The position numbers were made by a program, and so were the translations under genes. A stretch of DNA of 64,000 nucleotides from Verrucomicrobiia bacterium (GTDB lineage Bacteria > Omnitrophota > Omnitrophia > Omnitrophales > Aquincolibacteriaceae), in the NCBI GenBank assembly GCA_035495615.1, contig DATJFP010000092.1, positions 6,914 through 70,913 on the forward strand. Reading direction: 5' to 3'. Position 1 is the stretch's first letter. The number at the start of each line of letters is the position of its first letter. Of this stretch, positions 10,131-47,500 are shown piece by piece. The notes below the pieces were generated by a model. That model was not told the origin of the DNA. It was given only the letters and a program-made list of their open reading frames with translations, and ran no database searches.

Positions 10131-10325
10131 TTAAATCTCATAAACGGAGTTCACAAGCCTTTCCAGCGCGTCCAGGTCTTCTTGCATGTAAACACGCCAG
10201 CCTTTCCAATCACGCTTGGGCTTTTTGACCTTGCCGGCCTTTTCCCACCGCATGATGGTCTTCGTGGTAACGCCGATCTTTTCCGCGACTTCTGTTATGG
10301 TGTAGCGGCCATTATCTTTCAACAC
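10131..10325 (-). CDS. small excisionase/MerR-type helix-turn-helix (HTH_17) DNA-binding protein
   Basis: 64 aa. YTITEVAEKIGVTTKTIMRWEKAGKV matches the HTH_17/excisionase-family motif. It overlaps the wza-like start by about 10 nt. Confidence 0.65.
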   Translation of the reverse strand: MLKDNGRYTITEVAEKIGVTTKTIMRWEKAGKVKKPKRDWKGWRVYMQEDLDALERLVNSVYEI

Positions 10326-10746
10326 AATTCCTCCCTGAATGACTCAAGACTATTAACTCAGTGCAATTCCTGACATTTCCAACTATGTCCTGGAGTGTCC
10401 AACTATGTACATGAATTATGCCAATCAGCAAAACCCTGAAAATATAATCACGGGTGTCTACGGATGTTTATTGTTGCTAGCGATCGCTCGTTTACCGTTG
10501 GGCCATTTCATCATCCGCAGACGGGCGGGATGTCTAAAAAATTAAACATCGTGGAAATAACTTAACGTATCTTATTGATACCAAATGAGTTATTTCATCA
10601 ATGTCAAAGACCCAACGAATGTCGATTTATTTCATCAAGCGGAAAACGATATTAGGCGGAAGCTTACCACCTGACTTTAGAAATTGCAAATCAGGGAGTA
10701 AAAAAAGTGTCCCATTAAGGGGAAAATAAGGGGGGACAGTCCTGGA
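10326..10746 (-). promoter_or_regulatory. AT-rich non-coding control region upstream of HTH/EPS genes with two pairs of direct repeats
   Basis: Markedly AT-rich compared with flanking DNA and has no ORF. TCCAACTATGT occurs twice (10378-10388 and 10398-10408). TTATTTCATCAA occurs twice (10590-10601 and 10627-10638). Confidence 0.4.
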
Positions 10747-11247
10747 CTATCGGCGGGAATGCTTGTTCATGGTCCGGGAATGCATGTCGGTCTTCAGGCA
10801 GGCCACGCGATCCAGGAAAAGAACGCCGTTCAAGTGGTCGATCTCGTGCTGGACGCAGATGGCTTCGATACCCTGAAACTTACTTTCGTGCTCCCGGCCG
10901 TCGGCGGATTGCCACCGGGCCGTGACGCTGTCATAACGTTTGAGATCCGCCGTGTAATCCGGGAGGCTCATGCACCCTTCCCGGCTCAGGATTTCTCGGC
11001 CCTGTTCAAGGATCCGGGGATTGACCAGGACGATGAGCGACGCGCCGGGAACGCGCGGCGAAACATCGACCAGAGCCACGGCGCGGCCGTCGCCGATCTG
11101 CGGCGCGGCAATGCCGATGCCGTGTTTCTGAGCACGCATGATCTTTTCCAGTTTACGCACGAGCTGCGCGAGCGAGGCATCGAACGCTGTCACGGGGCGC
11201 GCCTTTTGCCGCAGCACGGGATCGGGGAAAAAGCGGATTTCAGACAC
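10747..11247 (-). CDS. def: peptide deformylase
   Basis: Contains the three PDF motifs GIGIAAPQIG, EGCMSLP and QHEIDHLNG. Confidence 0.95.
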   Translation of the reverse strand: MSEIRFFPDPVLRQKARPVTAFDASLAQLVRKLEKIMRAQKHGIGIAAPQIGDGRAVALVDVSPRVPGASLIVLVNPRILEQGREILSREGCMSLPDYTADLKRYDSVTARWQSADGREHESKFQGIEAICVQHEIDHLNGVLFLDRVACLKTDMHSRTMNKHSRR

Positions 11248-16014: not shown

Positions 16015-16572
16015 TTAGATCCGGTACACTTTGTCGCCCACGGACACGTCGCTCTTGACCTCCAGGCCGATCTCCTCGCCCGGACGCCCCTGGTCGATCG
16101 GAATCCTGTTGATCTGCATGGACTTCACTTTTTGCCTTATCTTACCCGATTTTCCGAGGATCACAATAGAATCCCCAAGGTCGAGCGGCTCCTCCAGCTT
16201 GAGGACCGCCGCGTGGACTTTGGGAAAATAATGCGTCAAGTTGCCCACATAAGTTCCCGGCGCCTCGTCTTTCGGGAGAGCTTTGGCGGAAACCTTTGCG
16301 GGGCGCACCGGTTTGGTCTCAGTCTTCAACTTGGCCTTGGCTTTTACGACAGGCAGCTTTGCCGGCCTTGGGCTGGGCTTGGGCGCGGGCGCCTTCTTCT
16401 TGGGCTTGGAAGCTTTTTTCTGTTTTACGGGACGGGCAGCGGCCCGCCTGGCTTTGGGCCTGGCCTTTTTACGAGGAGCTCTGATCCTGCGCCTCTTTTT
16501 TTTGCGCGGCGGTTTCCCCGACCATAGGGACAAACCGGACAGGAATCGTTTCAATTTTTTTAAAATGCCCAC
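16015..16572 (-). CDS. histone H1-like Lys/Pro/Ala-rich basic N-terminus fused to EF-Tu domain-2-like beta-barrel
   Basis: N-terminus is KKKRRRIRAPRKKARPKARRAAARPVKQKKASKPKKKAPAPKPSPRPAKLPVVKAKAK. C-terminus is GNLTHYFPKVHAAVLKLEEPLDLGDSIVILGKSGKIRQKVKSMQINRIPIDQGRPGEEIGLEV. The start is uncertain because the listed ATG start overlaps the pcm 3' end by about 100 nt. Confidence 0.4.
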   Translation of the reverse strand: MGILKKLKRFLSGLSLWSGKPPRKKKRRRIRAPRKKARPKARRAAARPVKQKKASKPKKKAPAPKPSPRPAKLPVVKAKAKLKTETKPVRPAKVSAKALPKDEAPGTYVGNLTHYFPKVHAAVLKLEEPLDLGDSIVILGKSGKIRQKVKSMQINRIPIDQGRPGEEIGLEVKSDVSVGDKVYRI

Positions 16573-20033: not shown

Positions 20034-21680
20034 TCACTGAGCCGCGGCCGCCGGAGGCTGAGCCGCTGTCCCCGCTTCGGGTTGAGCGTTTTGTGCGGGC
20101 GGAACCGTAGTTTGCCCGCTTTGCATGCTTGCTGTTTCGTCTGCTGCGCCTGAGGCCTGGGCGGCGGAGCTCGACGCGGGCGCATGCGCCGCAGCGCTGC
20201 CCACGTTTTGTTTCCCCGCGACCCTTTGGCCGGCCGGTTGACCTTCCGTATCCACCATGGTCACCGTGACAAAAAATAGTGTTTCGACTTTTTTATTAGC
20301 ATCTCCTGCCGTTTGACGTTTTGATCTGAAAGCTTTACCTACCAGGGGTAGATCTGCCAAATAAGGTACCTTCGATTCATTCATCGCGACATTGTCCGTG
20401 AGCAGACCGCCGATGGCGATGGTTTCACCGCTGCGGATCAGCACCTGCGTGATAGCCTTTGTCACGTTAAAGCTTGGAATTTGGAACTCACCGAAATCAA
20501 TGTTGGCCCCGGTCGAGCTGACCTCGGGGTTGAGGTCCACAAGAATTTCTTCTTCGGAATTGATGTGAGGCGTCACTTTCAGGACAACGCCGACCTGGCG
20601 GTAATAAAAACCGCTGATCTCGACGCTGCCCGTCGTTTCGTTGCGCTCGAAAGTGGGAAGAGGAATATCGCTTCCGACCTGGATGTTCGCGGACTGGTTG
20701 TTCAAGACCACGATCCTGGGATTGGAAACAACTTTGGTGTTGCTGCGGGTCTTCAGCATCTGGAGGATGGCGCTGAAACCTGAAAAATCCAGCGTGCCGT
20801 AATTATAGGTGGTGCTGGCGGAGGCTTCCGGTTCCGGAAAGCCGCGAGGATCGTTCGGATTTGCAGCGGCAGTGCCCGGGTCCGTATTGAGAACCGGGAA
20901 ATACTGCTGCAGCGCATTACCGATGTTACCGCCGAACAAATTATCGGTTTTGCTGGCAAACGGAAAAGTCGTGGGTCGGCTCGAGCCCGAGAGCTTGAGA
21001 AGCTGCGTCGCGGAATCGCCGCCGGTACGCCATTCGACGCCGAGGTTTTCCGCGGTCCCGACGTCGGTTTTGACGACCTTGGAATCGATGTACGCCTGCG
21101 GCGTCACCTTATCCAGTTTTGTCACGACTTCTTCGATGCTGTAAAGGTTGGTGGGAATGTCCGTGATGACGAGCATATTCGTGCGCTCCGCCACCTTGAT
21201 GCGTCCGCGTTCGGTCAGCATGTCTTTGACCGCTTCCATGACTTCCGCGGCCTTCGAGTAATTCAGGATGAACGTCTTGGTGACAAGCGGTTCGGCCGCG
21301 AGATTTTCCCGCGTGGTCACGCGGATGATATTGCCGTCCTTCTCGAACACGTAGCCGTAGGTCCGAAGCACCACCTCAAGCGCCTTCTTCCAGGGCACGT
21401 TTTCCAGGCGAATAGTCACGGTCCCCTGCACTTCCGGGCCCGCCACGATATTGACGCCGCTTTTGAGGCTCATGACGCGGAGCACCGTATTAATGTCCGC
21501 GTCTTTGAAATCAAGCGTCACCGTGGTCATCGCTTCTTCATTATTATTGGCCTCAACCGCGGGCTGGCTGACGGGCTGCGCCGCAGGCTGCTGGGCATAG
21601 ACCGTCTGAGAAACCAGGGTCAAAAAGGAGGCGAGGAGGGCGACGAACGGCTTATTTCTTTTGGGGGCTTTTAATATCAT
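20034..21680 (-). CDS. pilQ: type IV pilus secretin
   Basis: Signal peptide, an AMIN-like N-terminus, N0/N1 domains (VTLDFKDADINTVLRVM), and a secretin domain (RIVVLNNQSANIQVG...ETIAIGGL...VPYLADLPLVGKAFRS). An Ala/Gln/Pro-rich C-terminal tail is also present. Confidence 0.9.
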   Translation of the reverse strand: MILKAPKRNKPFVALLASFLTLVSQTVYAQQPAAQPVSQPAVEANNNEEAMTTVTLDFKDADINTVLRVMSLKSGVNIVAGPEVQGTVTIRLENVPWKKALEVVLRTYGYVFEKDGNIIRVTTRENLAAEPLVTKTFILNYSKAAEVMEAVKDMLTERGRIKVAERTNMLVITDIPTNLYSIEEVVTKLDKVTPQAYIDSKVVKTDVGTAENLGVEWRTGGDSATQLLKLSGSSRPTTFPFASKTDNLFGGNIGNALQQYFPVLNTDPGTAAANPNDPRGFPEPEASASTTYNYGTLDFSGFSAILQMLKTRSNTKVVSNPRIVVLNNQSANIQVGSDIPLPTFERNETTGSVEISGFYYRQVGVVLKVTPHINSEEEILVDLNPEVSSTGANIDFGEFQIPSFNVTKAITQVLIRSGETIAIGGLLTDNVAMNESKVPYLADLPLVGKAFRSKRQTAGDANKKVETLFFVTVTMVDTEGQPAGQRVAGKQNVGSAAAHAPASSSAAQASGAADETASMQSGQTTVPPAQNAQPEAGTAAQPPAAAAQ

Positions 21681-22086
21681 TCTTGGCTTCGCCGGGTTGT
21701 CCGGTTATTTCTTCTCTTAACCATATCGTTTTTTCTTCGTCTTCCTGGGCGAGGATGATGCGGTCCTTGAAAATCTGGAGGAGCGTCGCCTCGCCTATTT
21801 TATCTCCGGCGTGATAAACATCGCCGTTGATGAGCACCATCGAACCGCCTTGCGGATCGATGATAATGCCTTCGATCTGGAACGCGGCTGCTTTTGGCTG
21901 GCGGGTGATGATCCCGTGAGGCCCGACTAAAGGGATGAAGGGATCTCTCCGGCCTTCGCTATGATATTGAACATTTTCAGCCAATGCAACCGGAAAAACT
22001 GACGCGGTCATGAGGACAAAGAGCCAGGCGGCTCGAAACGCCGCTTTGTATTCCCGCTTAAAGCATCGGCTTCTCTTGAAAAACAT
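21652..22086 (-). CDS. pilP: type IV pilus assembly lipoprotein-like PilP
   Basis: Small protein with the RRDPF motif, positioned between pilO and pilQ. Confidence 0.55.
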   Translation of the reverse strand: MFFKRSRCFKREYKAAFRAAWLFVLMTASVFPVALAENVQYHSEGRRDPFIPLVGPHGIITRQPKAAAFQIEGIIIDPQGGSMVLINGDVYHAGDKIGEATLLQIFKDRIILAQEDEEKTIWLREEITGQPGEAKNDIKSPQKK

Positions 22087-22116
22087 AAAGTTTATTTTTT
22101 CCCTTTCTAAGAAATT

Positions 22117-22740
22117 TTAGGTGCCGGCTGCGGCGGCGGCCTGAGGCTCCTGCAGCGATACGGCCGAAAGCGTCAGGTGGACCATGTGCTTTTCCGGCGT
22201 GTCCTCTTCCGGCGTGATCGTGAAGTCTTCCACCCGCAGGATCTTGTCGTAGGATTCCACGCGGCTGATGAAGTCGGCGATCTGATGGTAGCCGCCTTCC
22301 ACGGTGAAATCAAAATAATCAGCTTTGTACTTCGCGTCAAAAGGCTTCGGAAAATCCGTTTTGACCTCCTGCGGCGAGGACGAAACGATCTTGATCTGGC
22401 TTTCGTCCGCAAGTCTTGCGATCTTTCCCAAAAGCAGCGATGTCTCCCCCGGAAAATAAAGGCGGCCTTTGACGTCTTTGATGAATTTTTCCGATGCTTC
22501 TTTTTCCTGAGTCCACACCGTTTTTTTCCGTCGCAGCGTCTGCAGCTGGATGATCTGCCCCTGCACGGCCGCGATCTGAGTCTTGACCATGGGCCGCTTG
22601 ATCCAGGCGGGCCAGACAAGAAAATACGTCAGCAAGAGCGCCCCGGCCGCTCCGGCCCCGATCATCGTCCAGGTCTTCTTATCGATGGATTTGGCCAGCA
22701 CGAGAAAGTCCTGAGGCGTCATCTGGTTCAGCGGCTTCAT
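22117..22740 (-). CDS. pilO: type IV pilus assembly protein PilO
   Basis: Single TM helix plus a periplasmic domain. The start was set at the ATG at 22740, which overlaps the pilN stop (ATGA). Confidence 0.6.
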   Translation of the reverse strand: MKPLNQMTPQDFLVLAKSIDKKTWTMIGAGAAGALLLTYFLVWPAWIKRPMVKTQIAAVQGQIIQLQTLRRKKTVWTQEKEASEKFIKDVKGRLYFPGETSLLLGKIARLADESQIKIVSSSPQEVKTDFPKPFDAKYKADYFDFTVEGGYHQIADFISRVESYDKILRVEDFTITPEEDTPEKHMVHLTLSAVSLQEPQAAAAAGT

Positions 22741-23348
22741 GCTTTTTTCGCCTCCCCTGTGTCCCATTGAAAAATCGCCGTGAACTGCGTGAGCTCGACG
22801 TTTTCCACGATTTGACGCGACGTCGTGAGCGAAAGCTTGGTCTCGGGCATCAGCTCTTTGAGCTGGTGCAGGTAAAGTTCGATGGATTCGATGCTGGATT
22901 TTTCCTTAGTCGCCAGGCAAAGCCCCTGGATCACGAGATCCCGCTTCTGGGCCTGATGTTTCAGGCTCACGCCCGTCAGCCACCCGCTCTCCGGCAGATT
23001 GCCGCTCAGCCACTCGAGGACCTGCGTGAGGGGCCGCTGCGTCGTGACGAACCGCTCCAAAAAATCCTTTTCGGTCTTGAGGACGTTTTCCACTTCGTTT
23101 TTCAGGTTGTTGAGGACCTGGGCCTGCGGCTGGACTTCCTTCCACTCCGCGTCCAGCTTTTTGAGACGCGCGTTGCTGCCCAGATAATCGAAATAAAAGA
23201 AGACGGTCAGGAGCGCCAGGCAGGCGCCTGCGGCGATGCCGATCTTGACGAGCGGCAGCTGGGTTGTCTGCGCTTTTTCTTTGACGCGGAATTCTTCGGG
23301 TAAAAGGTTGATTTCCAGCATCACGGGGCCTTCTAGTTCCTCAAACAA
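22737..23348 (-). CDS. pilN: type IV pilus assembly protein PilN
   Basis: INLLPEE N-terminal motif, one TM helix and a coiled coil. The start may be the internal MLEINLLPEE. Confidence 0.65.
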   Translation of the reverse strand: MFEELEGPVMLEINLLPEEFRVKEKAQTTQLPLVKIGIAAGACLALLTVFFYFDYLGSNARLKKLDAEWKEVQPQAQVLNNLKNEVENVLKTEKDFLERFVTTQRPLTQVLEWLSGNLPESGWLTGVSLKHQAQKRDLVIQGLCLATKEKSSIESIELYLHQLKELMPETKLSLTTSRQIVENVELTQFTAIFQWDTGEAKKA

Positions 23349-24457
23349 AGTCCCAGCGCCACGGGAATCAGGCGCTGATTTTTTTCAAAAAGAGCCCGGT
23401 CCATGCCCGGCGCCAGGATCAGCTTGTCGGCCTTCATCAATTCGGACGGGATGCCGAGCTGCTGCTGGAGGATGCTTCCGACGACCTGGAGGTCCCCTCC
23501 GCCTCCGCCCAGGTAAATCTTCTGCACCGGGCGCGCGTCCGTCACTTGTCCGAGATAATAATCGAGCGTCACTTTCAGGTCGGAGCACAACGTCTCCACG
23601 GCTTCCACCAGGACTTGCTTGCTTTCCGGCGTGGCCGCACTTCCGCCTTCCAGAGTCTTCTCCGCGTCTTCCTGCGTCATCCCGAGCTTCCTCCGCAGGC
23701 GTTTGGCAATGTCTTTGCCCCCGAACGAAATGTCCCGGATGAAACGCGGCTTACCATCCAGCACGATGCTCAGGCTGGAAATTTCGTCCCCGATGTCCAG
23801 GAACGCTATGGCCCCGGTCTTGAATTCTTCGGGGTGCAGGTATTCGAGCGCGTTCAGCGAGGCAAGGATATCCACGTCGATCAGCCCGATCGAGATGTCG
23901 GCGTCCTGGAAATCCTTGATGAGCGGGTAGATCTCCTCTTTTTTGACCGCAATCAAAAGCAGGTCGAGCAGGACTGCCGCATTGTCAGACTTCCGCTCCC
24001 CTAATATATGGAAGTCCAGGATAACTTCGTCGAGTTTGAACGGGATGTAGTTCTCCGCCTCGTAAGCGATGGCGCTGCGGAGTTCGGCCGGGCTCATTTT
24101 AGGAAACTGGATAAAACGGATGATGACGCTCTGCCCTTTCACGGAGATATGGACTTTTTCGGGCGAGATTCCCGCGAACGCTTCTTTCAGCGCATCAGCG
24201 CTCTTTCCCGACTCTTTCGGACGACGCACGATTTTGAAGTTCTGCACGGAGATGCCCGCGGCACTCTTTTCGAGGTCCAGCACCAGGATCTTCGAGGCCC
24301 CGTAATCGCAGGCGACGGCCCTGACGGGCCCTTCTTTTGCCGCGGCACCCGATTTCATGCCGCCTAATTTACCGAGCAAAGGGCCGGCCTTTTCCTGGAG
24401 CTTCTGCAGGACCGGTTGAATTTTGTCGAGTTTCGGAAGGTCGAACTTCATGTTCAC
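23333..24457 (-). CDS. pilM: type IV pilus assembly protein PilM (actin-like ATPase fold)
   Basis: 374 aa with the FtsA/PilM-like architecture (GGGGDLQVVGSILQQQLGIP). Confidence 0.75.
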   Translation of the reverse strand: MNMKFDLPKLDKIQPVLQKLQEKAGPLLGKLGGMKSGAAAKEGPVRAVACDYGASKILVLDLEKSAAGISVQNFKIVRRPKESGKSADALKEAFAGISPEKVHISVKGQSVIIRFIQFPKMSPAELRSAIAYEAENYIPFKLDEVILDFHILGERKSDNAAVLLDLLLIAVKKEEIYPLIKDFQDADISIGLIDVDILASLNALEYLHPEEFKTGAIAFLDIGDEISSLSIVLDGKPRFIRDISFGGKDIAKRLRRKLGMTQEDAEKTLEGGSAATPESKQVLVEAVETLCSDLKVTLDYYLGQVTDARPVQKIYLGGGGGDLQVVGSILQQQLGIPSELMKADKLILAPGMDRALFEKNQRLIPVALGLCLRN

Positions 24458-24554
24458 ACTTGAGGTTGAGAGCCCGTTTGGGCGGTTGCAAGAGCTCTTT
24501 TAATGATACCTAGATATCGTCCGACAAAGCCTCTTCATGCAGGTTAAAAAAAAA

Positions 24555-24592
24555 CCCGCCCCGCAACGCTGCGGGGCGGGTTTTCCGTGTTT
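24555..24592 (-). terminator. rho-independent terminator downstream of pilin copy 1
   Basis: CCCGCCCCGC-aacgct-GCGGGGCGGG hairpin. On the minus strand it is followed by a T9 run. Confidence 0.7.
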
Positions 24593-24603
24593 CAAACCAC
24601 TTA

Positions 24604-25095
24604 CTAGCCAGCGATCGCGGTACCACCAGCGCAACCCGCAGCGGCGCCAGCAGGAGCACCTGCACCGTTCACCGAACCGACGATCACACCCGTCTGGTCA
24701 ACGCAATAGGTGTTGGTCGCAGTCTGGTTGGCCACAACCGGCGTGGAAAGCAGCGAGAACGTGTTCGGGGTACCCGCACCACCGCCCGCATAAGCGAGGT
24801 TGAAGCCGTGTTTACCACCGGCAGCGCCCCAAGACGCGTCCAGATAAGCCGGAACAGCGCCCGTCAACGCGGCAACGTTCGCCGCATAGGCCGGAGGATT
24901 TTGTGCAGCGCGAAAGCTTTCATTTGAAGAGCTAAAAGCACGAAGGTCCGTCTTCATGGCGCCTTCGTTAGCGTTCATCCTAGCACGTAGCAAGTTCGGA
25001 ATCGCGATCGCGGCGAGCAGGCCGATGATGGCCACCACGATCATAATTTCTACAAGCGTAAAACCTTTTTGGTTCTTCCTTATCATGCGTATCAT
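24604..25095 (-). CDS. pilA: type IVa major pilin / pseudopilin (copy 1)
   Basis: Class III signal QKG|FTLVEIMIVVAIIGLLAAIAIPNL with Glu at +5. Has a C-terminal Cys pair (YCVDQ...AAGCAGG). GGAGG lies 6 nt upstream of the ATG. Confidence 0.85.
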   Translation of the reverse strand: MIRMIRKNQKGFTLVEIMIVVAIIGLLAAIAIPNLLRARMNANEGAMKTDLRAFSSSNESFRAAQNPPAYAANVAALTGAVPAYLDASWGAAGGKHGFNLAYAGGGAGTPNTFSLLSTPVVANQTATNTYCVDQTGVIVGSVNGAGAPAGAAAGCAGGTAIAG

Positions 25096-25278
25096 TTAAC
25101 ACCTCCATTATGTCATCGCGACTATTACAACTATTACCACATGGGTGCTGTTTCGGCAAATTCTATCAAAACTAAAACTCCTCAGATTCCTATAGTTCTT
25201 TTGCTTCCTTAAATAAGTCCCAATCACCCGTTAAGCCTTGCGATAGAAACGTTTTCCACAGGATAGGCAAAGAAAAAC

Positions 25279-25312
25279 CGCCCCGCAAATTAATGCGGGG
25301 CGGTTTCCCAAA
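25279..25312 (-). terminator. rho-independent terminator downstream of pilin copy 2
   Basis: CCGCCCCGC-aaattaat-GCGGGGCGG hairpin with a T-run on the minus strand. Confidence 0.7.
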
Positions 25313-25333
25313 CGTCCTAAAATGCGCTGCGGC

Positions 25334-25825
25334 TTAGCCGGAAATGGCCGTACCGCCCGCACAACCGGCCGCCGCTCCGGCAGGAGCGCCCGCGCCGTTT
25401 ACCGATCCTACGATCACGCCCGTCTGGTCCACACAATACGTGTTCGTCGCTGTCTGGTTGGCAACGACAGGCGTCGAAAGCAGCGAATACGAATCCGGAG
25501 TACCCGCTCCTCCGCCGGCATAGGCCAGGTTAAAGCCATGCTTTCCGGTAGCCGCTCCCCACGAAGCATCCAGATAAGCAGGCACCGCACCGGTAAGAGC
25601 GGCCACGTTTGCCGCAAAAGCCGGCGGATTCTGTGCCGCCTGGAAGCTGGTGTTGGCAGAGCTGAAAGCCCGAAGGTCCGTCTTCATGGCACCTTCATTG
25701 GCATTCATCCTTGCACGAAGCAGGTTCGGAATCGCAATCGCGGCCAAAAGGCCGATAATGGCAACCACGATCATGATTTCGACAAGCGTAAAACCTTTTT
25801 GATTCTTCTTTGTAATAAAATTCAT
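25334..25825 (-). CDS. pilA: type IVa major pilin / pseudopilin (copy 2, ~94% identical to copy 1)
   Basis: Same prepilin leader and C-terminus as copy 1. The start was set at the ATG at 25825, which has GGAGG at 5-nt spacing. The ORF extends to 25837. Confidence 0.85.
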   Translation of the reverse strand: MNFITKKNQKGFTLVEIMIVVAIIGLLAAIAIPNLLRARMNANEGAMKTDLRAFSSANTSFQAAQNPPAFAANVAALTGAVPAYLDASWGAATGKHGFNLAYAGGGAGTPDSYSLLSTPVVANQTATNTYCVDQTGVIVGSVNGAGAPAGAAAGCAGGTAISG

Positions 25826-25958
25826 ACATGCCTCCATACAATCAGATTTACTGCTAATTCAACTGTAAGTTATTCCTACCAAAACTTCAAATCCTCACAA
25901 GACTAAATTTCGTTAAAATCTCAGTTTTTTTCATCTCGTTAAAAACTCTTTCCGCTTC

Positions 25959-27188
25959 CTATTTAATATGCTGCGTCAGCGTCAGGATCGGCAGGAAGAG
26001 CGCGATCACGATGCCGCCGATGACCACCCCGAGAAACAGGATGATCAAGGGTTCGATCAGGGAAGTCAGGCCGTCCACCGCCGCATCGACCTGCGTGTCG
26101 TAAAAATCGGCAATCTTCATGAGCATCTCTTCCAATTCGCCCGTCTCTTCGCCGACGGCGATCATGCGCACGACCATCTGGGGGAAAACGTCGCTTTTGA
26201 GGAGCTGTCCTGAGATACTTTCCCCTTTCTTGACCGAATCCATCAGCGAGGTGATCACCAGCTCAATGCGCCTGTTGCCCGACGTCTTCGCGACGATTTC
26301 CAGGGACTGCAGGATGGAAACGCCGCTTCGGACAAGGGTGGCGAGGGTCCTCGAAAATTTACTGACGGCCACTTTCAGGAGGATGGGCCCGAAAATCGGC
26401 ATTTTGATGATGAAAGAGTCAAAGGCCAATCGTCCTGCCGGCAGCTTGATGAGCTGCGTGAAAAGGAAGATCGCGCCGCCGATACCCCCCAGGATCAGCA
26501 GCCAGTTGGCGGCCATGAAACGGCTGATGTCGATCAGCGTCTGCGTGATGACCGGCAATTTCGCGTCCAGACCTTCGAAGATCTCCGCGAATTTCGGGAT
26601 AACGAAGGTCATCATGCCGAAGGTGATCAAAAAGGCGATGATGGTGACCGACAGCGGATACATCATCGCGGACTTCACCTTCTTCTGCAGGGCGCTCGTT
26701 TTTTCGAGGTAGTTGGCGACGCGGTCGAGAATCTCTTCCAGGCTTCCGCTGGTTTCACCGGCGCGCACCATGTTGATGAAGAGAGTCGAGAACACCTTCG
26801 AATGTTTCTGCATGGCCTCGGAAAAACTTTTGCCGCTCTGCACGTCCTGGTGCATGGTTTTCAGGATGACGCGGAACCGGTCTTTCTCCACCTGCTCGCC
26901 GAGAATGTCCAGCGCCTGGATCAACGGGATGCCCGCGGACACCAGCGTGGCCATCTGGCGGGAAAAGACGACGAGGTCGTCCAGCTTGACGCTGCCGCTC
27001 TTTCCCTTTCTCTTGGCCGGGCCTTTGGAGACGTTGAAAACTTTCTTCGCCTGGATCTCGTTCACCCGGACGATGATGAGGCCCTGGGAACGCAGCGTGC
27101 CGACAAGCGTGCCCACGTCCGGAGCTTCCTGAATCCCGCTCTGATCTTTGCCTGTTCTGTCTTTGACCTGATACTCGAAGGTTGGCAT
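25959..27188 (-). CDS. pilC: type IV pilus assembly platform protein PilC (GspF family)
   Basis: Two T2SSF repeats (SAGIPLIQALDIL and RSGVSILQSLEIV) and three TM helices. Confidence 0.9.
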   Translation of the reverse strand: MPTFEYQVKDRTGKDQSGIQEAPDVGTLVGTLRSQGLIIVRVNEIQAKKVFNVSKGPAKRKGKSGSVKLDDLVVFSRQMATLVSAGIPLIQALDILGEQVEKDRFRVILKTMHQDVQSGKSFSEAMQKHSKVFSTLFINMVRAGETSGSLEEILDRVANYLEKTSALQKKVKSAMMYPLSVTIIAFLITFGMMTFVIPKFAEIFEGLDAKLPVITQTLIDISRFMAANWLLILGGIGGAIFLFTQLIKLPAGRLAFDSFIIKMPIFGPILLKVAVSKFSRTLATLVRSGVSILQSLEIVAKTSGNRRIELVITSLMDSVKKGESISGQLLKSDVFPQMVVRMIAVGEETGELEEMLMKIADFYDTQVDAAVDGLTSLIEPLIILFLGVVIGGIVIALFLPILTLTQHIK

Positions 27189-27192
27189 AAGC

Positions 27193-28902
27193 TTAGTGGT
27201 CCGAAGCGGTCACCCGCAGGACTTCCTCCATGGTGGTTTGGCCGAGTTTGAAAAGAGAGAAGGCATTTTCAAACAGCGTCTCCATTCCCTTTTTAACGGC
27301 AGCCTCGTGAATAACATTGCTGGATTTTCTTTGAATGATCAATTCCCTGATTTCATTGTCGATCGTGAGAACCTCGGTTGTGCCGAGGCGCCCGTAGTAA
27401 CCGGTGTTGTTGCATTTCGCGCAGCCCTTGCCTTTAAAGCTCTTAATGTCCTTCATGTCTTCGGGTTTCATGTGGCAGCGCCGCATCACGTCTTCCGGAA
27501 CTTCGCACGGCGCTTTGCAGAACTGGCAGATTTTTTTCATGAGCCGCTGCGCGGCCACCCCGACCAGCGAGGACGCGATGAGGAAAGGCTCCACACCCAT
27601 GTCGATGAGGCGCGTGACGGCGCCGGCCGCGCTATTGGTGTGCAGCGTGCTGAAGACAAGATGGCCGGTCAACGCGGCTTTGACCGCGATGTCCGCGGTT
27701 TCGCCGTCGCGGATTTCGCCGACCAGCACGATGTCCGGGCTTTGGCGCAAAAGCGAGCGCAGCCCCGCGGCAAACGTGAGCCCGACTTCGGGGATCACGC
27801 CGGTCTGGCTTATGCCTTCCACCTGGTATTCGACGGGATCTTCGATGGTCATGATGTTCCGGTCGGCCGTGTTCAACGTCCCCAGGATCGTGTAGAGCGT
27901 CGTGGATTTTCCGCTGCCCGTGGGGCCGGTCACGAGCATCATGCCGTAAGGATGCTTGATGATCTCGGCGATCCTGGACGTGGGCCTTTCCGTGAAGCCC
28001 AGTTTGTCGAGGCCGGATTTCAAACCCGATTTGTCCAGCACGCGGAGCACCATTTTCTCTCCGAAATACGTCGGCAGGATGGAAACGCGGAAATCCACCT
28101 CCGTGTTGTGAACCTTGATGCGGAAGCGCCCGTCCTGCGGCACGCGCTTTTCCGTGATGTCCAGCTGGGAAATGATTTTGACTCGGGCGACCACGGCGGG
28201 ATAAACGTCCTTGGCATGCGCGAACGATTCGTGAAGCGCGCCGTCGATGCGGTAGCGCACGCGGAATTCTTTTTCGTACGGCTCGAAATGGATGTCCGAA
28301 GCGCGAGACTTCAGCGCGCCGTCCAGGATCACGTTCACCATGCGCACGACCGGGGCATTGTCGATCTTGCCCCCGGAGCCCTTGTCCTCATCTTTGTTGT
28401 CTTCCTTGATGACTTCGAGGCTGTCTTCGTCGATGCCTTCGATGATTTCATCCAGGTTGGCGCTTTCGGAATAGTACTGCTCGATCAGGCCCGAAATCAT
28501 TTTGGGAGGCGCGAGAACCAGAGCCACGTCGCAGCTGAGAAGCCCTTTGATGTCGTCTTTCAGCATGAGATCGAAAGGATTGCTGGTCGCCAGCGTAACA
28601 AGTTTTTTAATGCGCGACAGCGGGATGACGCGATAACGTTCCGCGATCTTGGCCGGAAACGATTTGATGATTTCTTTGGGGATACGGTAAGCCGGAAGAT
28701 TCAGGAGGGGGATCCCGAGATGGTTGCTCATGAAATCGATCATCTCGTCGTCCTTCATCATCTCTTTTTCGGTGATCAGCTGCAAAACCGTCTTTTTTTC
28801 TTTCCGTGCAAGAGGCATCAGCTCTTTCAACTTTTCCGCGTCCACCTTTTTTTCCTCGACGAGGAGCTCGGCCAGTTTGTCCGCGGAAAAATGAGGCGTC
28901 AT
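27193..28902 (-). CDS. pilB: type IV pilus assembly ATPase PilB/GspE family (copy 1)
   Basis: GspE N-domain, Walker A LVTGPTGSGKSTT, Asp box, His box, and a tetra-Cys zinc motif (CQFCK...CAKC). The start was moved to the ATG at 28902 (MTPHF), which is preceded by GGGAGGGAAGG. Confidence 0.9.
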   Translation of the reverse strand: MTPHFSADKLAELLVEEKKVDAEKLKELMPLARKEKKTVLQLITEKEMMKDDEMIDFMSNHLGIPLLNLPAYRIPKEIIKSFPAKIAERYRVIPLSRIKKLVTLATSNPFDLMLKDDIKGLLSCDVALVLAPPKMISGLIEQYYSESANLDEIIEGIDEDSLEVIKEDNKDEDKGSGGKIDNAPVVRMVNVILDGALKSRASDIHFEPYEKEFRVRYRIDGALHESFAHAKDVYPAVVARVKIISQLDITEKRVPQDGRFRIKVHNTEVDFRVSILPTYFGEKMVLRVLDKSGLKSGLDKLGFTERPTSRIAEIIKHPYGMMLVTGPTGSGKSTTLYTILGTLNTADRNIMTIEDPVEYQVEGISQTGVIPEVGLTFAAGLRSLLRQSPDIVLVGEIRDGETADIAVKAALTGHLVFSTLHTNSAAGAVTRLIDMGVEPFLIASSLVGVAAQRLMKKICQFCKAPCEVPEDVMRRCHMKPEDMKDIKSFKGKGCAKCNNTGYYGRLGTTEVLTIDNEIRELIIQRKSSNVIHEAAVKKGMETLFENAFSLFKLGQTTMEEVLRVTASDH

Positions 28903-30662
28903 GCGGCCTTCCCTCCCGTTTTCGCCTGGTCCGCGGCGGTCACGCGGTAAACCTCTTCCAGCGACGTCTCCCCTTCCGAGGCCTTGCGCACGGCGCATTC
29001 GCGGAGCGTGGTCATGCCCTGCTCACGCCCCTGCGCCTTGATGTCGTCCGAAGAAGCGGCCTTTGCAATCATCGAAATCACCTGCGGCGTCATTTCCAGG
29101 ATTTCCGTGATCACGGTGCGGCCGGCGTAACCCGAATTGCGGCAGCGCTGGCAGCCTTTCGGCTGAAAAAAGGTGTGGGGCTTCGAAGGATCCAGGCCCA
29201 GGTTTTTCAATGTTTCGGCATCGACTTCATAAGGCTGGCGGCATTTGAAGCACAGGCGGCGCACCAGGCGCTGGGCGGAAATCATGATCACAGTCGATGC
29301 GATGAGAAATGGTTCCAGCCCCATGTTCATCATGCGCGTGACGGAGCTCGCGGCATCGTTGGTGTGCAGCGTGCTGAGCACGAGGTGGCCGGTGAGCGCG
29401 GCCTTGACCGCGATGTCCAGCGTGTCGTTGTCGCGGATTTCACCAATGAGGATGATGTCCGGATCCTGGCGCAGGATCGAACGCAGCGCCGCCGGAAAAG
29501 TCAGCCCTACGGTGTCGCGGACGTTCACCTGGTTGATGCCGATCATCTGGTATTCCACGGGGTCTTCGACCGTTGTGATGTTCACTTCGGGATCGTCCAG
29601 GTATTTGAGCACAGAGTAAAGCGTCGTGGTTTTGCCGCTGCCCGTAGGGCCCGTCACCAGGATCATGCCGTGCGGCCGCTGCGCGGAATCTTTGATGATC
29701 TGCTGCTCGCGGTCGTTGAACCCCAGCTTGCTGATGTCGTGGCTCTGTGACGACGTGTCCAGAATACGCAAGCACACCTTCTCGCCGAAGCTCGTCGGCA
29801 AAATCGAAATGCGCATGTCCACCTGGCGTTTTTCGGCTTTGACCTTGATGCGGCCGTCCTGCGGGACCCGGTGTTCGGCAATGTCGAGGTTGCTCATGAC
29901 CTTGATCCTGGAAACGATGGCCGAGGCCAGCGACTTGGGCGGCCGGATGACTTCTTCCAGAAGCCCGTCGACGCGCGCGCGGACGCGCACGTGGTTTTCC
30001 CAGGGCTCGATGAAAATGTCGCTGGCGTGCCGCTTGATGCCCTCGATCAAGAGCCGGTTCACGAGCTTGATGACCGGCGTTTCGAACGCTTCCTTCATCA
30101 GGTCGGAAGTCTGGACGGCGGGGCCATCCTGCTCGATCTCGATGGCCTTCACGATGTCGTCGAGCTCCTCGCTGTAATTTTTCTCCGAGCCCCCGGCCGC
30201 CGGCGCCTCGCCCGGCTTGGCTTCGAAGTAGTACTTCTGCACGTATTTTTTCAACACGCTGTATTGCGCGACCGCGGCCTTGATGCGCAGGCCCGTGATG
30301 CTGTGGAGCTCATCGATGGCCTTCAGGTTCAGCGGATTGGCGAGCGCCACGGTCAACGTGTTCTCCAGGCGCGTGATCGGCAGAGCGTTGTACTTCTCCG
30401 CGATTTTGGCGGGAATCAGCTTGATGAGCTCCGGCTCGATGACGAAGATCGCGGGATTGACCGATGTCATGGCGTACTCCTGGCTGAGTACTTTGACGAG
30501 CGCGCGCTCGTCGCATTTGCCCAGCCGCAGGAGAACGTCGAGGAGCGGCTCTTTGGTTTCTTCGTGCTCGCGAAGGGCCTGATGGATGTCGCCGGGCGCC
30601 GCGACGTTACCCTTGATCAGGCTATTTTGAAGCTCGGCGTAAATATTTTCTTTTCCCGGCAT
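28899..30662 (-). CDS. PilB/GspE/MshE-family secretion ATPase (copy 2, tandem paralog)
   Basis: Walker A LVTGPTGSGKTTT and a tetra-Cys motif (CFKCR...CQRC), with the same architecture as copy 1. It overlaps copy 1 by 4 nt. Confidence 0.85.
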   Translation of the reverse strand: MPGKENIYAELQNSLIKGNVAAPGDIHQALREHEETKEPLLDVLLRLGKCDERALVKVLSQEYAMTSVNPAIFVIEPELIKLIPAKIAEKYNALPITRLENTLTVALANPLNLKAIDELHSITGLRIKAAVAQYSVLKKYVQKYYFEAKPGEAPAAGGSEKNYSEELDDIVKAIEIEQDGPAVQTSDLMKEAFETPVIKLVNRLLIEGIKRHASDIFIEPWENHVRVRARVDGLLEEVIRPPKSLASAIVSRIKVMSNLDIAEHRVPQDGRIKVKAEKRQVDMRISILPTSFGEKVCLRILDTSSQSHDISKLGFNDREQQIIKDSAQRPHGMILVTGPTGSGKTTTLYSVLKYLDDPEVNITTVEDPVEYQMIGINQVNVRDTVGLTFPAALRSILRQDPDIILIGEIRDNDTLDIAVKAALTGHLVLSTLHTNDAASSVTRMMNMGLEPFLIASTVIMISAQRLVRRLCFKCRQPYEVDAETLKNLGLDPSKPHTFFQPKGCQRCRNSGYAGRTVITEILEMTPQVISMIAKAASSDDIKAQGREQGMTTLRECAVRKASEGETSLEEVYRVTAADQAKTGGKAA

Positions 30663-42902: not shown

Positions 42903-43517
42903 TTAAGCGCTTTTCGCGCCCGAGGTGCCGTTCTTCCCGCCGCGGTAATATTCGATTTTTTCCAGAAGCTTGTCCAGGGTGAACGGCTTGTGGATGACGT
43001 CGTTGGCCCCGGATTCTTTCATCTTGGCCTGCTCGCCTTCGCCTTTCAGTCCCGTGACCGCGACGATGATGACTTCTTTGAAGCGGGGGTCTTCGCGCAC
43101 GAACCGGCAGAACTCGAAACCGTCCAGCTCCGGCATGCGGAAATCCAGAAGCACCATATCGGGCCTCTCTTCGACCAGCTTCGCGCCGGCCGTGAATCCG
43201 TTGTTGACCGTAATCAGCTTGAGGCCCTGGATGCCGGAGAACATGTCCTGCAGGAGTTCCAGGACGTCCGTTTCATCGTCCACGGCGAGGATGACGTAAT
43301 CTTTCCTTTTTTCCAGCTCTTCTTCGCCCTGCCAGGGAAGATTGTAGGCCTGCGCGAAATGAACGAGCTCGTCATGCGCGATGCGGCGGTGCCCGCCGAC
43401 GGTCGTGAAACAGCTGAACTTCCCGCCTTCGATCCACCGGATCACGGTGATCGGCGTGACCCCCAGAAGCCTGGCCACTTCGTGCGTCGTATAGAGCTTT
43501 TTGGTTCCCTGTTCCAT
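42903..43517 (-). CDS. response regulator with inverted architecture: N-terminal excisionase/MerR-type HTH_17, C-terminal receiver domain
   Basis: N-terminus LYTTHEVARLLGVTPITVIRWIEGGKF. C-terminal REC domain with the acidic pair ILAVDDETD, phospho-acceptor LLDFRMPELDG, AVTGL and HKPF. Confidence 0.8.
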   Translation of the reverse strand: MEQGTKKLYTTHEVARLLGVTPITVIRWIEGGKFSCFTTVGGHRRIAHDELVHFAQAYNLPWQGEEELEKRKDYVILAVDDETDVLELLQDMFSGIQGLKLITVNNGFTAGAKLVEERPDMVLLDFRMPELDGFEFCRFVREDPRFKEVIIVAVTGLKGEGEQAKMKESGANDVIHKPFTLDKLLEKIEYYRGGKNGTSGAKSA

Positions 43518-43836
43518 GTCATCCCCCTCGGGTCTTGGACTATGAAGATAAAGACATGATAACTATGTAGGTTTTGTTATTCTGAGTAAAGTATAGCCAC
43601 CGGGTTTCCGTAATTCAAATTCTGAGGCGAAGAATATTTAGCCCTAAGCGCATTGCTTAAATGGAGTTACAAATAATAAGCCCACAATTTTAAGAGAGGT
43701 TTTCGAAGCAGGTCCGCGGGTTTGAGGAGCGGCGGCGTCTTTATGATAGAATTATCCGGGACGCTCCTGGACATGGGGACGTTTAAAATTTGCTATGGAA
43801 TTCGCGTTCCTTGCCGTAAATTAGCCCTGATATCTT
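43518..43836. promoter_or_regulatory. AT-rich divergent intergenic region between the response-regulator gene and the lipoprotein gene; contains an ACTATG direct repeat
   Basis: 319-bp non-coding region. It contains GGACTATGAAG and ATAACTATGTAGG (43547-43579), a motif related to the one upstream of the HTH gene at 10378-10408. Confidence 0.35.
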
Positions 43837-44439
43837 ATGAAGAAAGCCATTCTTATTTCCTTATGCGTGCTGGCCGCCGGCCTTCCCCTTACCGGCTGCC
43901 GCAAAAAACCTCTCCAAGAGCAGCCTCCTGCCAAGCAGGAAGCCGCGACTCTCAAGCTATTAAAGAAGGCCGGCCTCGAGGTCTATCCGAAGAGCGAGAT
44001 CCTGGATCAGTCGCTGAAGAATCAGGAAACCGAAAAGCTCTATGGAGCGAACCCGGAGGCGAAAAGCGAAGTGACCGTAGCGCGGGTGTGGGCGGCGGTG
44101 GATGCGCCGGTCGAAGAAGTGCGGGCCTACTACGCGAAAACTCATCCCTATGTCCTGCGCGACGAGCATAAGACCGACGGCACCGAATTCATCCAGCTCT
44201 CTTCCGTGGAAAAGATCGCCTCAGCCATCACCGAAGGTGTGACCCCGATTACGCTGGTGGACATCCGCAAGAACAAACTGACCGCCGACGAACGCACGGG
44301 CTACGAAGGCGAGCTGAAGGCCTTGCAGGAAAAAAAGGGCCCGGATCTCGTCGACGAAAACAGGATCAAGGAACTGCAGCGGCTCCTTGCGGAAAAAACC
44401 ATCGTCAAGCTGAGCCTCCGCGCGGAAAAACCCTCCTAA
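43837..44439 (+). CDS. hypothetical lipoprotein (only plus-strand gene in window)
   Basis: Signal peptide and lipobox LISLCVLAAGLPLTGC. 200 aa. Followed by a strong terminator. Confidence 0.55.
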   Translation: MKKAILISLCVLAAGLPLTGCRKKPLQEQPPAKQEAATLKLLKKAGLEVYPKSEILDQSLKNQETEKLYGANPEAKSEVTVARVWAAVDAPVEEVRAYYAKTHPYVLRDEHKTDGTEFIQLSSVEKIASAITEGVTPITLVDIRKNKLTADERTGYEGELKALQEKKGPDLVDENRIKELQRLLAEKTIVKLSLRAEKPS

Positions 44440-44551: not shown

Positions 44552-47500
44552 TTATGCCGAGGATTTGACCTGCATTTCCTCGAGCAAGGAATCGGTCAAC
44601 GAAGCGGCGACGGCTTCGGCGACCAGCATGCCGCGGTTACCGTTCGGAGCCTTGGCCGCGTCAAAGACGTACGGCGGAATTTCCTTCAGACCCAAGATGG
44701 ACAGGACGAGCGCGGTCTCGATCAGTTTACGGATGGCAAGATCGCGGTCCTTGGCTTCGGCCGCGGGATTGACGACAGCAAGACCGACGGCCAGTTTGCC
44801 GGCGTAGTCCGCGTTGACGGCCTGATACATGTCGGATTCGGCGCCCTGGACCATGATGGCCTGGTTGCCTTCGGCGGCGATCTCGGCATTGAGGTTGACC
44901 ATCGTGCCGAGCTGATCCACGTTCGTGGCAAACCGCACGGTCTGCGTTCCGTAGTAGGCGGCCAGCTGCGCCCAGCGCGCGTCGAACTGCACGCCGGCGA
45001 TGACCACTTGGTGGCGCCTGGCGAACATTTCGGTTTCGAGGGCCGGCATCGAGATCATCATGGCCTGCGCCGGGTGCACGCCGCCCATCGCGCCCTGGAC
45101 ATTCATCACCCAATCCGTGACGGTCAGGAGGCCGTCTTCCTTGGCCAGCGCTTCTTTGAGTTCCGCGCCCGTATGCTGCGTGGCCATACGGATGAGAAGC
45201 TCGATGTTTTCGCCGCGGCCCTGGAAGTAGTCGCGCGCGGCGGCGGACGTCTTCGGATCGTTCAGGATGCCTTCGATGTCGCCGAGCGTCGTCGAGTACG
45301 CGGCCAGTTCGTGCAGGACGTCGAACGCGTGAGAATTGTAGCCCAGCGTATCCAGCGAAGCGCGCAGCTGCGGGTTGGCGGCCAGGGCTTCGATCTTTGC
45401 ATGCAGTAAGGCGTGCGTCTTTTCGTGGTTCAGGAAGATCCGCAGGTGCTGGGCGCGGATCGTGCGGTCCAGGCTTGTGTCCACGAAGCGTTCGGGCGTC
45501 ACGACGATCTTGGTGCTGCCGTCTTCCATGTGGCGCGCATAACCCAGACGGCGGTTGTCCTGCGCGAGCAGCGTGTCTTCCGGGCGCTGCACGAAGAACA
45601 TATGGATGTTGTCGGGATTCGTGCCGCGCAGCATGGAGAGCACTTCCTCCGGCGATTCGAAGGCCGCCGCGAGGACGTTTTCGAGTTCGGCAGTCTGTTC
45701 CGGCGTGAGGCCGAGGTCCTGGCCCGCGAGTACGCCTTCGAACGGGGCTTCGCGCAGTTCCGACTTCGGCGCGGCCGGCGCCGTTTCACGCAGCTCGCCG
45801 CGGATTTTCTTGAGCGCCTGAACAAGCGTATCCCCTTCGAGGCCGGCAAGATTGTCCAGCCATGTTTTCAGCTGGCCGGGCAATTCTTCGATGCCGGAGA
45901 AGAACTGGTCGGCGCCCGCCTGGATCGCAATGCCGTCGTTCAGGATCCGGTCCACGAGGCCCTTCATGAATTTCACTTCTTCGATCGCCGGCATCTGCTG
46001 GCTCTTGTCCGCGATGCGGTTGTACATGATCGGGACGAGGAGCGCCATGACGCGGGCGATCAGCGCGTTGACGTCGGCGCGCTCCGGAGCGGACGCGTCG
46101 AGGCTGGCAAGCAGCTGGTCGAGCGACTCCAGCGCGCCGAGCAGCTCTTTCGCGGAACGGTTCTGGTCCTTGCGGCTCTGGATTTCGTCGATCGTCCAGC
46201 GCAGGCCGTTCACGAGATCGGCGCGGCTGTTCGAGAAATCCACTTTCGGCATGAATTCGGACAGCTCGCGGAGCGAAACAGGATCGGCCTTGGCCATGCG
46301 TTCGTCCATCCAGGACTTGGGCTTGAACTCGATGATGACATGCCGGCTTCCGACCTTGGTGATGAACTGGAAGGCCTGGCCCTGGCGCGCGAGGCCGTTG
46401 TACTTTTCACGCGTCTCCTTGACATTGTCGCCGTCATAGATCTGGTCTTGCGGGTAAGTCGCTTCGTCGTCCAGGCGCTTGTCGCCGATCGGCAGGAGCT
46501 GGTAGCGCGTTTCGCCAAGGCCCGTGCCCGCATAGCCGTAAGCGCCTTCGGCGAGCTGGTAGATACCGTCATAATCACGCAGCGTATCGCCCATCACGCT
46601 GGAAGGCAGGACATCGTAAGTTCCCCTCGCGCTCCTCGGATGGATATGATAGAAGCCGCCGAGCTGATTCTTGGCGTAAACTTCGACCTGGTTGTGCTTC
46701 AAGCCGGTGGTCAGGATAAAGCGCTCGCGGCCCGTGGACGGGTCGATCTGGGCGCTGATCGCGAATTCGTACGGCATCTTCTTCATCATTTCCAGCTCGT
46801 CGCGCGTGGGCTTGGCCGAAAGCTCGACCACATAACGGCCGTTCGCACCGAGATCGCGGTGCAGCGCGCGCGTGGCCGAGGCCTGCGCGAGGACGTCGTC
46901 GCGGTCGAGCGCGGCCGCGGCGGCTTCCGCTTCCGCCTTCTCCTGATGGAGTTCCATGTAGCGTTCCGACAGCTGCTGCATCTGAGACGGATCCATCGTA
47001 CGGGCCATCTCCGACAGCTGCTGCATTTCCTGATCGATTTCTTCGGGACGGTTCAGGATCTTGAGCTGTTTGGCCAGCTTCAGGCTGTCGTTCAGAACCT
47101 CGGCCAGCGAAACGGTTCCTTCCATGCCGAGGAACTTCACGTTGTAGGCGTGGACGCGAGGATTGACGCTGCCCGCTTCCCAGAGCGCGGCCATGGCCAG
47201 GATGCCGAGCTCCGTATCGTCGGAGCGCAGGAACTGGGCGATGAGGCCGAGCGCCCGCTGCAGGCGCGCATCCAGCTCGTCCTGCGTCGGAGGCGTGGGA
47301 GGAATTCCCGCGCCGGCCTTGCGTCCGTCATACTGCAGGGCGACGTCGATGATCTTGTCGAAGACCTTTCTCATGGTGCGGTTCTTGAACGCCACTTCAT
47401 CAACGGAATCATTCGGCGCGTAATCCTGCAGCTCTTTGGCCAGCGCCTTGAGCTCGGTGCCGTCCGCGTCGTAATCCGCGTCCGCGGCGAGTTTCTCAGC

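Follow-up and report, generated by a model that had tools for sequence, protein, structure and literature searches.

Distinct, separately conserved tandem-repeat arrays near the promoters of two MerR-like regulator genes in Omnitrophota

Regulator genes and a repeated upstream word

The window (the whole 64,000-nt stretch of DNA that was analysed) carries two genes for MerR-like DNA-binding proteins, both on the minus strand. The first (10131-10325) encodes a 64-amino-acid, stand-alone winged-HTH protein (Pfam MerR, MerR_1) and is the first gene of an EPS-export operon, being followed by genes for Wza (export protein), Wzz (chain-length determinant) and an AAA_22 ATPase in every locus with enough downstream sequence. 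When the EPS-export genes are compared with XrtA/PEP-CTERM models for a chain-length determinant, an ATPase, an export protein and a tyrosine kinase, TIGR03007 is passed (283.8; cut-off 278.85), and the scores for TIGR03015 (316.8; cut-off 324.5), TIGR03018 (143.8; cut-off 230.65) and TIGR03027 (108; cut-off 180) lie below the respective cut-offs. A metagenome scan for the small protein gave 353 matches, from which 80 loci (73 unique) were kept; its 74 close homologs come from Omnitrophota-like MAGs where these are named. The AlphaFold model of the protein (pLDDT 89) consists of an HTH, a wing and one C-terminal helix, with helices at residues 10-17, 21-29 and 48-62. The protein ends after the third helix and has no dimerisation or effector domain. 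Its closest relatives are the N-terminal domains of classical MerR proteins, RacA and the DNA-binding domain of CarH.

The second gene (42903-43517) encodes a response regulator that joins a BldC-like HTH_17 domain at the N-terminus to a receiver domain at the C-terminus (Pfam; Response_reg 1e-21); its residues D80, D81, D125 and K177 are invariant. Directly 3′ of this gene the window has a histidine kinase gene (HisKA and HATPase_c), as do 16 of 18 genome loci. These loci were obtained by a genome scan for regulator orthologs, which found 18 in Omnitrophota (59-78% identity); the window and 17 of them make up the alignment used below. The N-terminal domain matches three distinct PDB sequences, two of which are BldC (6AMA, 6AMK; E ~5e-7). 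Both proteins had been assigned to HTH_17 in the original prediction for this DNA; the assignment is clear for the response regulator, and the small protein stays below the HTH_17 cut-off (22 vs 27 bits).

The region upstream of the small gene (site 1) contains two copies of TCCAACTATGT on the plus strand, at 10378-10388 and 10398-10408, 20 bp apart and 53-83 nt 5′ of the GTG start at 10325. The region upstream of the response regulator gene (site 2) contains GACTATGAA at 43538-43546 and AACTATGTA at 43561-43569 (plus strand), 23 bp apart and 21-52 nt 5′ of the ATG at 43517. The site 1 pair had thus been predicted exactly in both coordinates and spacing. At site 2, the predicted copies and their 23-bp spacing exist, about 10 nt away from where they had been placed, and the predicted distance of 50-85 nt upstream of the start codon holds for site 1 and fails for site 2.

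The word held in common, AACTATGT (the 8-mer ACATAGTT in gene orientation), has three copies in the window, where whole-window shuffles predict 0.23; this null disregards the AT-rich composition of intergenic DNA. All three copies lie upstream of the two regulator genes in the same orientation. With a Markov-1 null fitted to both regions, a shared word of at least 9 nt between two 100-nt upstream regions has P ~0.03, and a word that is repeated in one upstream region and present in the other has P ~1e-4 (Markov null).

Promoters and conserved arrays

Site 1, which reads TTGGCATAATTCATGTACATAGTTGGACACTCCAGGACATAGTTGGAAATGTCAGGAAT in gene orientation, contains a sigma54-type -24/-12 promoter, TGGCAT-N5-ATGTA (10408-10423, minus strand), identified from the promoter consensus. 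The same element, with the same spacing, is found in 67 unique ortholog promoters. Its ortholog form, TGGCA(C/T)-N6-TG(C/T), is present in 75 of 81 upstream regions (the window and 80 loci), and the chance expectation for such an element at the orthologous position is ~1%, as estimated here from the pattern frequency. The GG and the spacing match the sigma54 consensus TGGCAC-N5-TTGCW (GG-10 nt-GC); the -12 element of the window is GT, not the consensus GC. Among the 67 unique ortholog promoters, the -12 element is TGC in 55 and TGT in 12. The TGT-for-TGC form (window position 10409) belongs to one clade, in which the spacing is kept, and would be an unusual variant if still sigma54-dependent. 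Neither rpoN nor a sigma54 activator gene turned up in the window genes that were scanned. A sigma70-type alternative for site 1 (TTTTCA-16-CATAAT in the window) was rejected, as it is not kept in orthologs.

Downstream of the -12 element lies a proximal array of four units, one per 10 bp (10366-10400, minus strand), which begins at ~+1 of the predicted sigma54-type promoter and whose layout recurs over 73 metagenomic loci. The units are GGACA (10396-10400), GGACA (10386-10390), GGAAA (10376-10380) and GGAAT (10366-10370), and the predicted start site falls within the first of them. Among the orthologs, GAC has its peaks at offsets 20-25 from the -24 GG and, 10 nt on, at offsets 30-35, and the logo reads CTAnGACTGTCnnRGACAgtCC. 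Pairs of the form GAC(A/T)-N6-7-GAC(A/T) on the gene strand of the 73 unique loci are concentrated within 200 nt before the gene (58 of 83); elsewhere they occur at ~1 per 100-nt bin. In the window, RGAC(A/T) is ~4-fold enriched across 10326-10760 (P = 0.002). The array has 2-6 units depending on lineage, and both number and orientation vary (e.g., L044, L059, L072); in some lineages, inverted TGTC units precede the array. The central two units are also palindromic in many orthologs (GACTGTC-N3-GACAGTC), so a symmetric dimer of another factor could bind there. The distance from the -24 element to the start codon ranges from 61 to ~196 nt among orthologs. A GC-rich subgroup (L027, L033, L050, L053, L059, L065, L080) differs in having the sigma54-type promoter ~100 nt 5′ of the GGACA array, with a GC-rich leader between the two.

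Similar elements lie farther upstream of site 1. Inverted TAGACA units around an A/T tract (ATGTCTAAAAAATTAAACAT; 10530-10549, plus strand) are located ~110 nt 5′ of the -24 element and are kept in L001, L002 and L012. A distal GGAC pair, GGACAGTCCTGGACTATC (10734-10751, plus strand), overlaps the def stop codon and has equivalents in L001 and L002. The window thus has GACA-type elements ~110 and ~310 nt upstream of the site 1 promoter, and many loci have a second array 250-600 nt 5′ of the small gene.

Three exact copies of ATTTCATCA (10505-10513, 10592-10600, 10629-10637; plus strand), two of which are within 15-nt repeats, lie 83-207 nt 5′ of the promoter. They were considered as enhancer sites and rejected, being unconserved in L001, L002, L003 and L012. 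A GATTTGCA(A/T)TTT block (~10679-10692, plus strand; ~270 nt 5′ of the sigma54-type promoter) is conserved in L001 and L002 and looks like the -35 region found in the response-regulator promoters; it may belong to a second promoter. A further GAC pair, at 16529, is inside long ORFs.

Site 2 has a sigma70-type promoter, TTGAAT-17-TATACT (43590-43618, minus strand), with a TTTGCA-like -35 element and a TATACTT -10 element that are conserved in all 18 aligned sequences. In the ortholog leaders, the TATACTT -10 element is followed by GTAACAAAAnnnACAnnnnTAACA. The leader of the window carries the array ATAACAAAACCTACATAGTTATCA (43557-43580, minus strand), which spans ~+4 to +27 of the predicted start and contains three (T)AACA units, one per 9 bp. 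Their CA dinucleotides are invariant (18/18), lie exactly 9 nt apart and are the sole invariant columns after the promoter in the 18-sequence alignment; on the plus strand they appear as TG at 43575-76, 43566-67 and 43557-58. The array stands at a fixed distance from the -10 element and at 39-109 nt from the start codon.

The shared word in relation to the arrays

The ACTATG that had been taken as the core of the motif consists mostly of unconserved spacer, and its ACA/TGT end alone overlaps a conserved unit. Because the site 1 units recur every 10 bp from the start site, each 11-mer TCCAACTATGT (10378-10408, plus strand) runs from the end of one unit through a spacer and reaches into the next unit or into the -12 element. 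The pair belongs to a 20-nt tandem unit (10368-10407; 16/20 identity), and L001, the closest relative, is alone in keeping this 20-bp super-period. At site 2, AACTATGTA (43561-43569, plus strand) overlaps the middle conserved CA unit only, and GACTATGAA (43538-43546, plus strand) is in unconserved leader sequence near the ribosome-binding site. On the preferred reading, the 8-mer ACATAGTT is a probably functional ACA core joined to unconserved spacer, doubled at site 1 by a lineage-specific 20-bp tandem duplication.

Exact ACATAGTT is found in none of 70 and none of 21 orthologous upstream regions, and in the closest relatives it has decayed, to ACATACTT and ACAAAGTT in L001 and to ACAAAGTT in L100. 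The units that are conserved differ between the sites: GGACA per 10 bp behind a sigma54-type promoter vs (T)AACA per 9 bp behind a sigma70-type promoter. A site 2 matrix built from the orthologs alone has one window match, the array at 43557-43580 (score 21.0; next best 8.5), and finds no site 2-type element near the EPS locus. Conversely, the site 1 matrix misses the predicted site 2 motif in a window scan; on the window's own site 1 it scores 14.8, against best scores of shuffled sequences that average 11.0 and reach 17.8. The two HTH domains (13/25 residues identical) belong to different MerR-like subtypes.

What the sites have in common is an architecture, in which direct-repeat arrays with an ACA core start right after the -10 or -12 element. 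As the motif falls inside two different conserved arrays, each gene is probably self-controlling, and these comparisons make it unlikely that the loci are linked by an operator common to both. The original prediction is partly confirmed as an observation and partly supported as an interpretation. Same-orientation direct repeats near each promoter do make an operator plausible at both genes, and autoregulation is plausible for each, since each array lies just 3′ of the gene's own promoter; a single common operator, and cross-regulation through a shared motif, are not supported. An exact shared 9-mer can accordingly overlie operators that are real but different, which is a caution for motif-based links of this kind.

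Candidate binding proteins and alternative readings

The two arrays are somewhat more probably than otherwise a pair of autoregulatory operators, the small protein acting on the GGACA array of site 1 and the response regulator on the (T)AACA array of site 2. The arrays themselves, where they stand relative to the promoters and how they are conserved are observed; which protein binds which array, and the sign of its effect (repression or activation), we infer here. Because the arrays always accompany the small gene and the EPS operon, co-occurrence cannot tell which regulator uses them. At site 1, the sigma54-type promoter would transcribe the small gene together with the XrtA/PEP-CTERM-type EPS-export genes that follow it, and small winged-HTH proteins, by analogy with BldC and CarH, could assemble side by side on the GGACA units (~+1 to +35). 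Since the array is at the start site, repression is the likely effect: the bound protein would hinder open-complex formation or promoter escape, resulting in negative autoregulation of the operon. At site 2, the BldC-like N-terminal domain may bind the three (T)AACA units head to tail, and phosphorylation of the receiver domain could control this assembly and thereby autoregulation of the regulator/kinase operon.

BldC of Streptomyces is a MerR-like winged-HTH protein that binds head to tail on 9-bp direct repeats in variable number and contacts DNA through Lys26, Arg30 and His46, of which Lys26 contacts bases (PMC5859096). The way in which the site 1 arrays vary in unit number and orientation between lineages is typical of cooperative multimer sites, those of BldC included. 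Like BldC, the small protein is a winged HTH only, with 64 residues and neither coiled coil nor effector domain, and it keeps Lys22 and Arg26 (corresponding to Lys26 and Arg30), with Trp43 in place of His46. The response regulator matches BldC at E 5e-7 and keeps the contact Arg (Arg27) and the His of the GGHRR motif (His43), with Ile23 in place of the Lys. The unit period at site 2 is 9 bp, as for BldC, and that at site 1 is 10. However, both proteins score below the cut-off of 77 bits of NCBIfam NF033787 (41 for the regulator, 25 for the small protein), BldC reads a different unit, AATTXXXX(C), from (T)AACA or GGACA, and, unlike the response regulator, it carries no receiver domain. The small protein, with Trp where BldC has His, is also nearer to the DNA-binding domains of classical MerR and CarH.

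The DNA-binding domains of CarH occupy tandem direct repeats nnnnTnnACAn with an ACA core, which overlap promoter elements (PMC9304148). By both sequence and fold, CarH/LitR (PDB 5C8D/5C8E) ranks with the nearest relatives of the small protein, and the same ACA core is contained in GGACA. The period is 11 bp in CarH operators vs 10 bp at site 1, and the T three bases before ACA is present in 17 of 43 sequences. The B12-binding oligomerisation domain of CarH is absent from the 64-residue protein, which matches the first 57 positions of the CarH model alone. In addition, CarH operators overlap sigma70 -35/-10 elements, whereas the site 1 array is at a sigma54-type start site. Classical MerR, CueR and SoxR share the N-terminal winged-HTH fold, but these are coiled-coil dimers with an effector domain that use one palindrome in a 19-20-bp sigma70 spacer, none of which is seen here, and the site 1 array is downstream of the -12 element.

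Variation among the orthologs bears on the pairing of small protein and array. Lys22, the counterpart of the base-contacting Lys26 of BldC, is replaced by Arg in five loci, which are exactly the five with the changed operator GTC-N13-GAC. Protein and operator thus change together, and this co-variation is suggestive only, since the five loci may go back to a single evolutionary event. The small-protein variants of these loci (L031, L034, L055, L056, L073) have, besides the Arg for Lys22 and the GTC-N13-GAC layout, the C-terminus WRFYH/Y.

The GGAC-binding protein of site 1 may in addition act at the second locus. A third GGAC array, GGACGCTCCTGGACATGGGGAC (43759-43780, plus strand), is located between the regulator gene and a divergent lipoprotein gene (43837-44439), ~60-80 nt 5′ of the latter, and its binding could control the lipoprotein gene, the regulator operon or both. 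Its part GGACGCTCCTGGACAT (43759-43774) has 14/16 identity to the site 1 core GGACACTCCAGGACAT, where 0.22 window matches with three or fewer mismatches are expected, and all three window matches of GGACWNNYCNRGACA are confined to these two intergenic regions, one of them overlapping the def stop codon. When the intergenic region is aligned with that of L100, the sole comparable genome, three blocks prove conserved, and the array is one of them; the lipoprotein has three homologs, one with just 21 nt upstream. Against the link, the other 18 loci have no GAC arrays 5′ of the regulator gene, where the neighbouring gene is a different one, and the site 1 matrix scores of 7.9 and 11.3 are inside the shuffle range. 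We therefore treat such a connection between the loci as possible and rather doubtful.

Another regulator of EPS genes, such as a sigma54 activator (a PrsR-like enhancer-binding protein), could occupy the site 1 arrays instead. A cis-regulatory site with a sigma54 motif has been described upstream of PEP-CTERM protein genes in the PEP-CTERM/EpsH system of Proteobacteria (Haft et al., 2006; PMC1569441). Site 1 resembles it in that EPS-associated genes lie behind a -24/-12 promoter with large intergenic regions and the export genes match XrtA/PEP-CTERM models. The Proteobacterial PEP-CTERM/EPS genes with sigma54 promoters have, in addition, an activator motif upstream of the promoter, and neither a small MerR-like gene nor a start-site array is described in that paper, from whose text the term 'MerR' is absent (PMC1569441). 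The GACA-type elements ~110 and ~310 nt upstream of the site 1 promoter are at enhancer-like distances, and the palindromic form of some units would suit a dimer. However, enhancer-binding proteins act from upstream, and the best-conserved units are at or after the start site. The usual sites of enhancer-binding proteins are dimer sites, unlike direct arrays of 2-6 units per 10 bp. The tracking of the changed operator by the Lys22-to-Arg replacement likewise points to the small protein rather than to an activator, which is an unlikely occupant on this evidence.

The conserved blocks might instead act in the transcript, as a 5′ stem-loop or as a single-stranded protein-binding motif (GGA, A/C-rich tracts) that affects mRNA stability or translation. 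Both blocks are inside the predicted 5′ leaders, A-purine-any-base triplets are frequent in the site 2 block, and at site 1 GACUGUC-AUA-GACAGUC could make a 7-bp hairpin in one clade. [quoted passage not shown] RNAalifold gives no consensus structure for either leader alignment. The site 1 hairpin is paired in 70.5% of cells, with no compensatory changes and with every departure unpaired, and an alternative site 1 stem is no better than controls and has no compensatory changes either. Rfam has no match (permissive E-values for both window regions; gathering threshold for seven GC-rich loci). The distance of the blocks to the start codon varies (site 2, 39-109 nt; site 1, 61 to ~196 nt as measured from the -24 element), and the same site 1 units are also found 5′ of the promoter and in both orientations. 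With spacing fixed to the promoter, these results favour a DNA-level, protein-binding role for the arrays as the better reading, and action in the transcript appears improbable.

Least probable is the model of the original prediction, in which AACTATGT(A) direct repeats are a common operator of both HTH domains that cross-regulates the EPS and two-component loci: the three same-orientation copies, the rarity of a repeated-and-shared word (P ~1e-4) and the ACA in both unit types speak for it, and against it stand the loss of the 8-mer from all 70 and 21 orthologous regions and its decay in L001 and L100, the differing conserved columns (GGACA/10 bp vs (T)AACA/9 bp), the unconserved surroundings of the second site 2 copy (43538-43546), the matrices that each miss the other site and the different subtypes of the domains.

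The preferred reading, in which each regulator acts on its own array, belongs to a known kind, that of MerR-like mini-regulators reading tandem repeats; the setting at a sigma54-type EPS promoter and the fusion to a receiver domain would be new. The analysis supplies defined, conserved cis-elements, each with a candidate binder, for two regulators of Omnitrophota, a phylum without a genetic system. If the mechanisms hold, tandem-repeat reading of the BldC/CarH type would extend to the sigma54-type promoter of an EPS-export operon and to a BldC-like domain fused to a receiver. A wider and distinctly speculative scheme, which we regard as rather unlikely, would make the 64-residue MerR-type protein a gatekeeper of sigma54-dependent EPS export across Omnitrophota, polymerising on the GGACA units of the transcription start and on sites farther upstream, with possible looping of the DNA. 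In this lineage the gatekeeper would also bind beside a two-component operon whose own BldC-like polymerising regulator is controlled by phosphorylation, the whole forming a small network of repeat-reading mini-regulators within a phylum that is uncultivated.

Two further features of the window may be recorded. A single ORF of 6476 amino acids (44552-63982, minus strand) adjoins the two-component locus. A type IV pilus or type II secretion cluster (20034-30662, minus strand) encodes a secretin, PilM, a T2SSF protein and two T2SSE ATPases.
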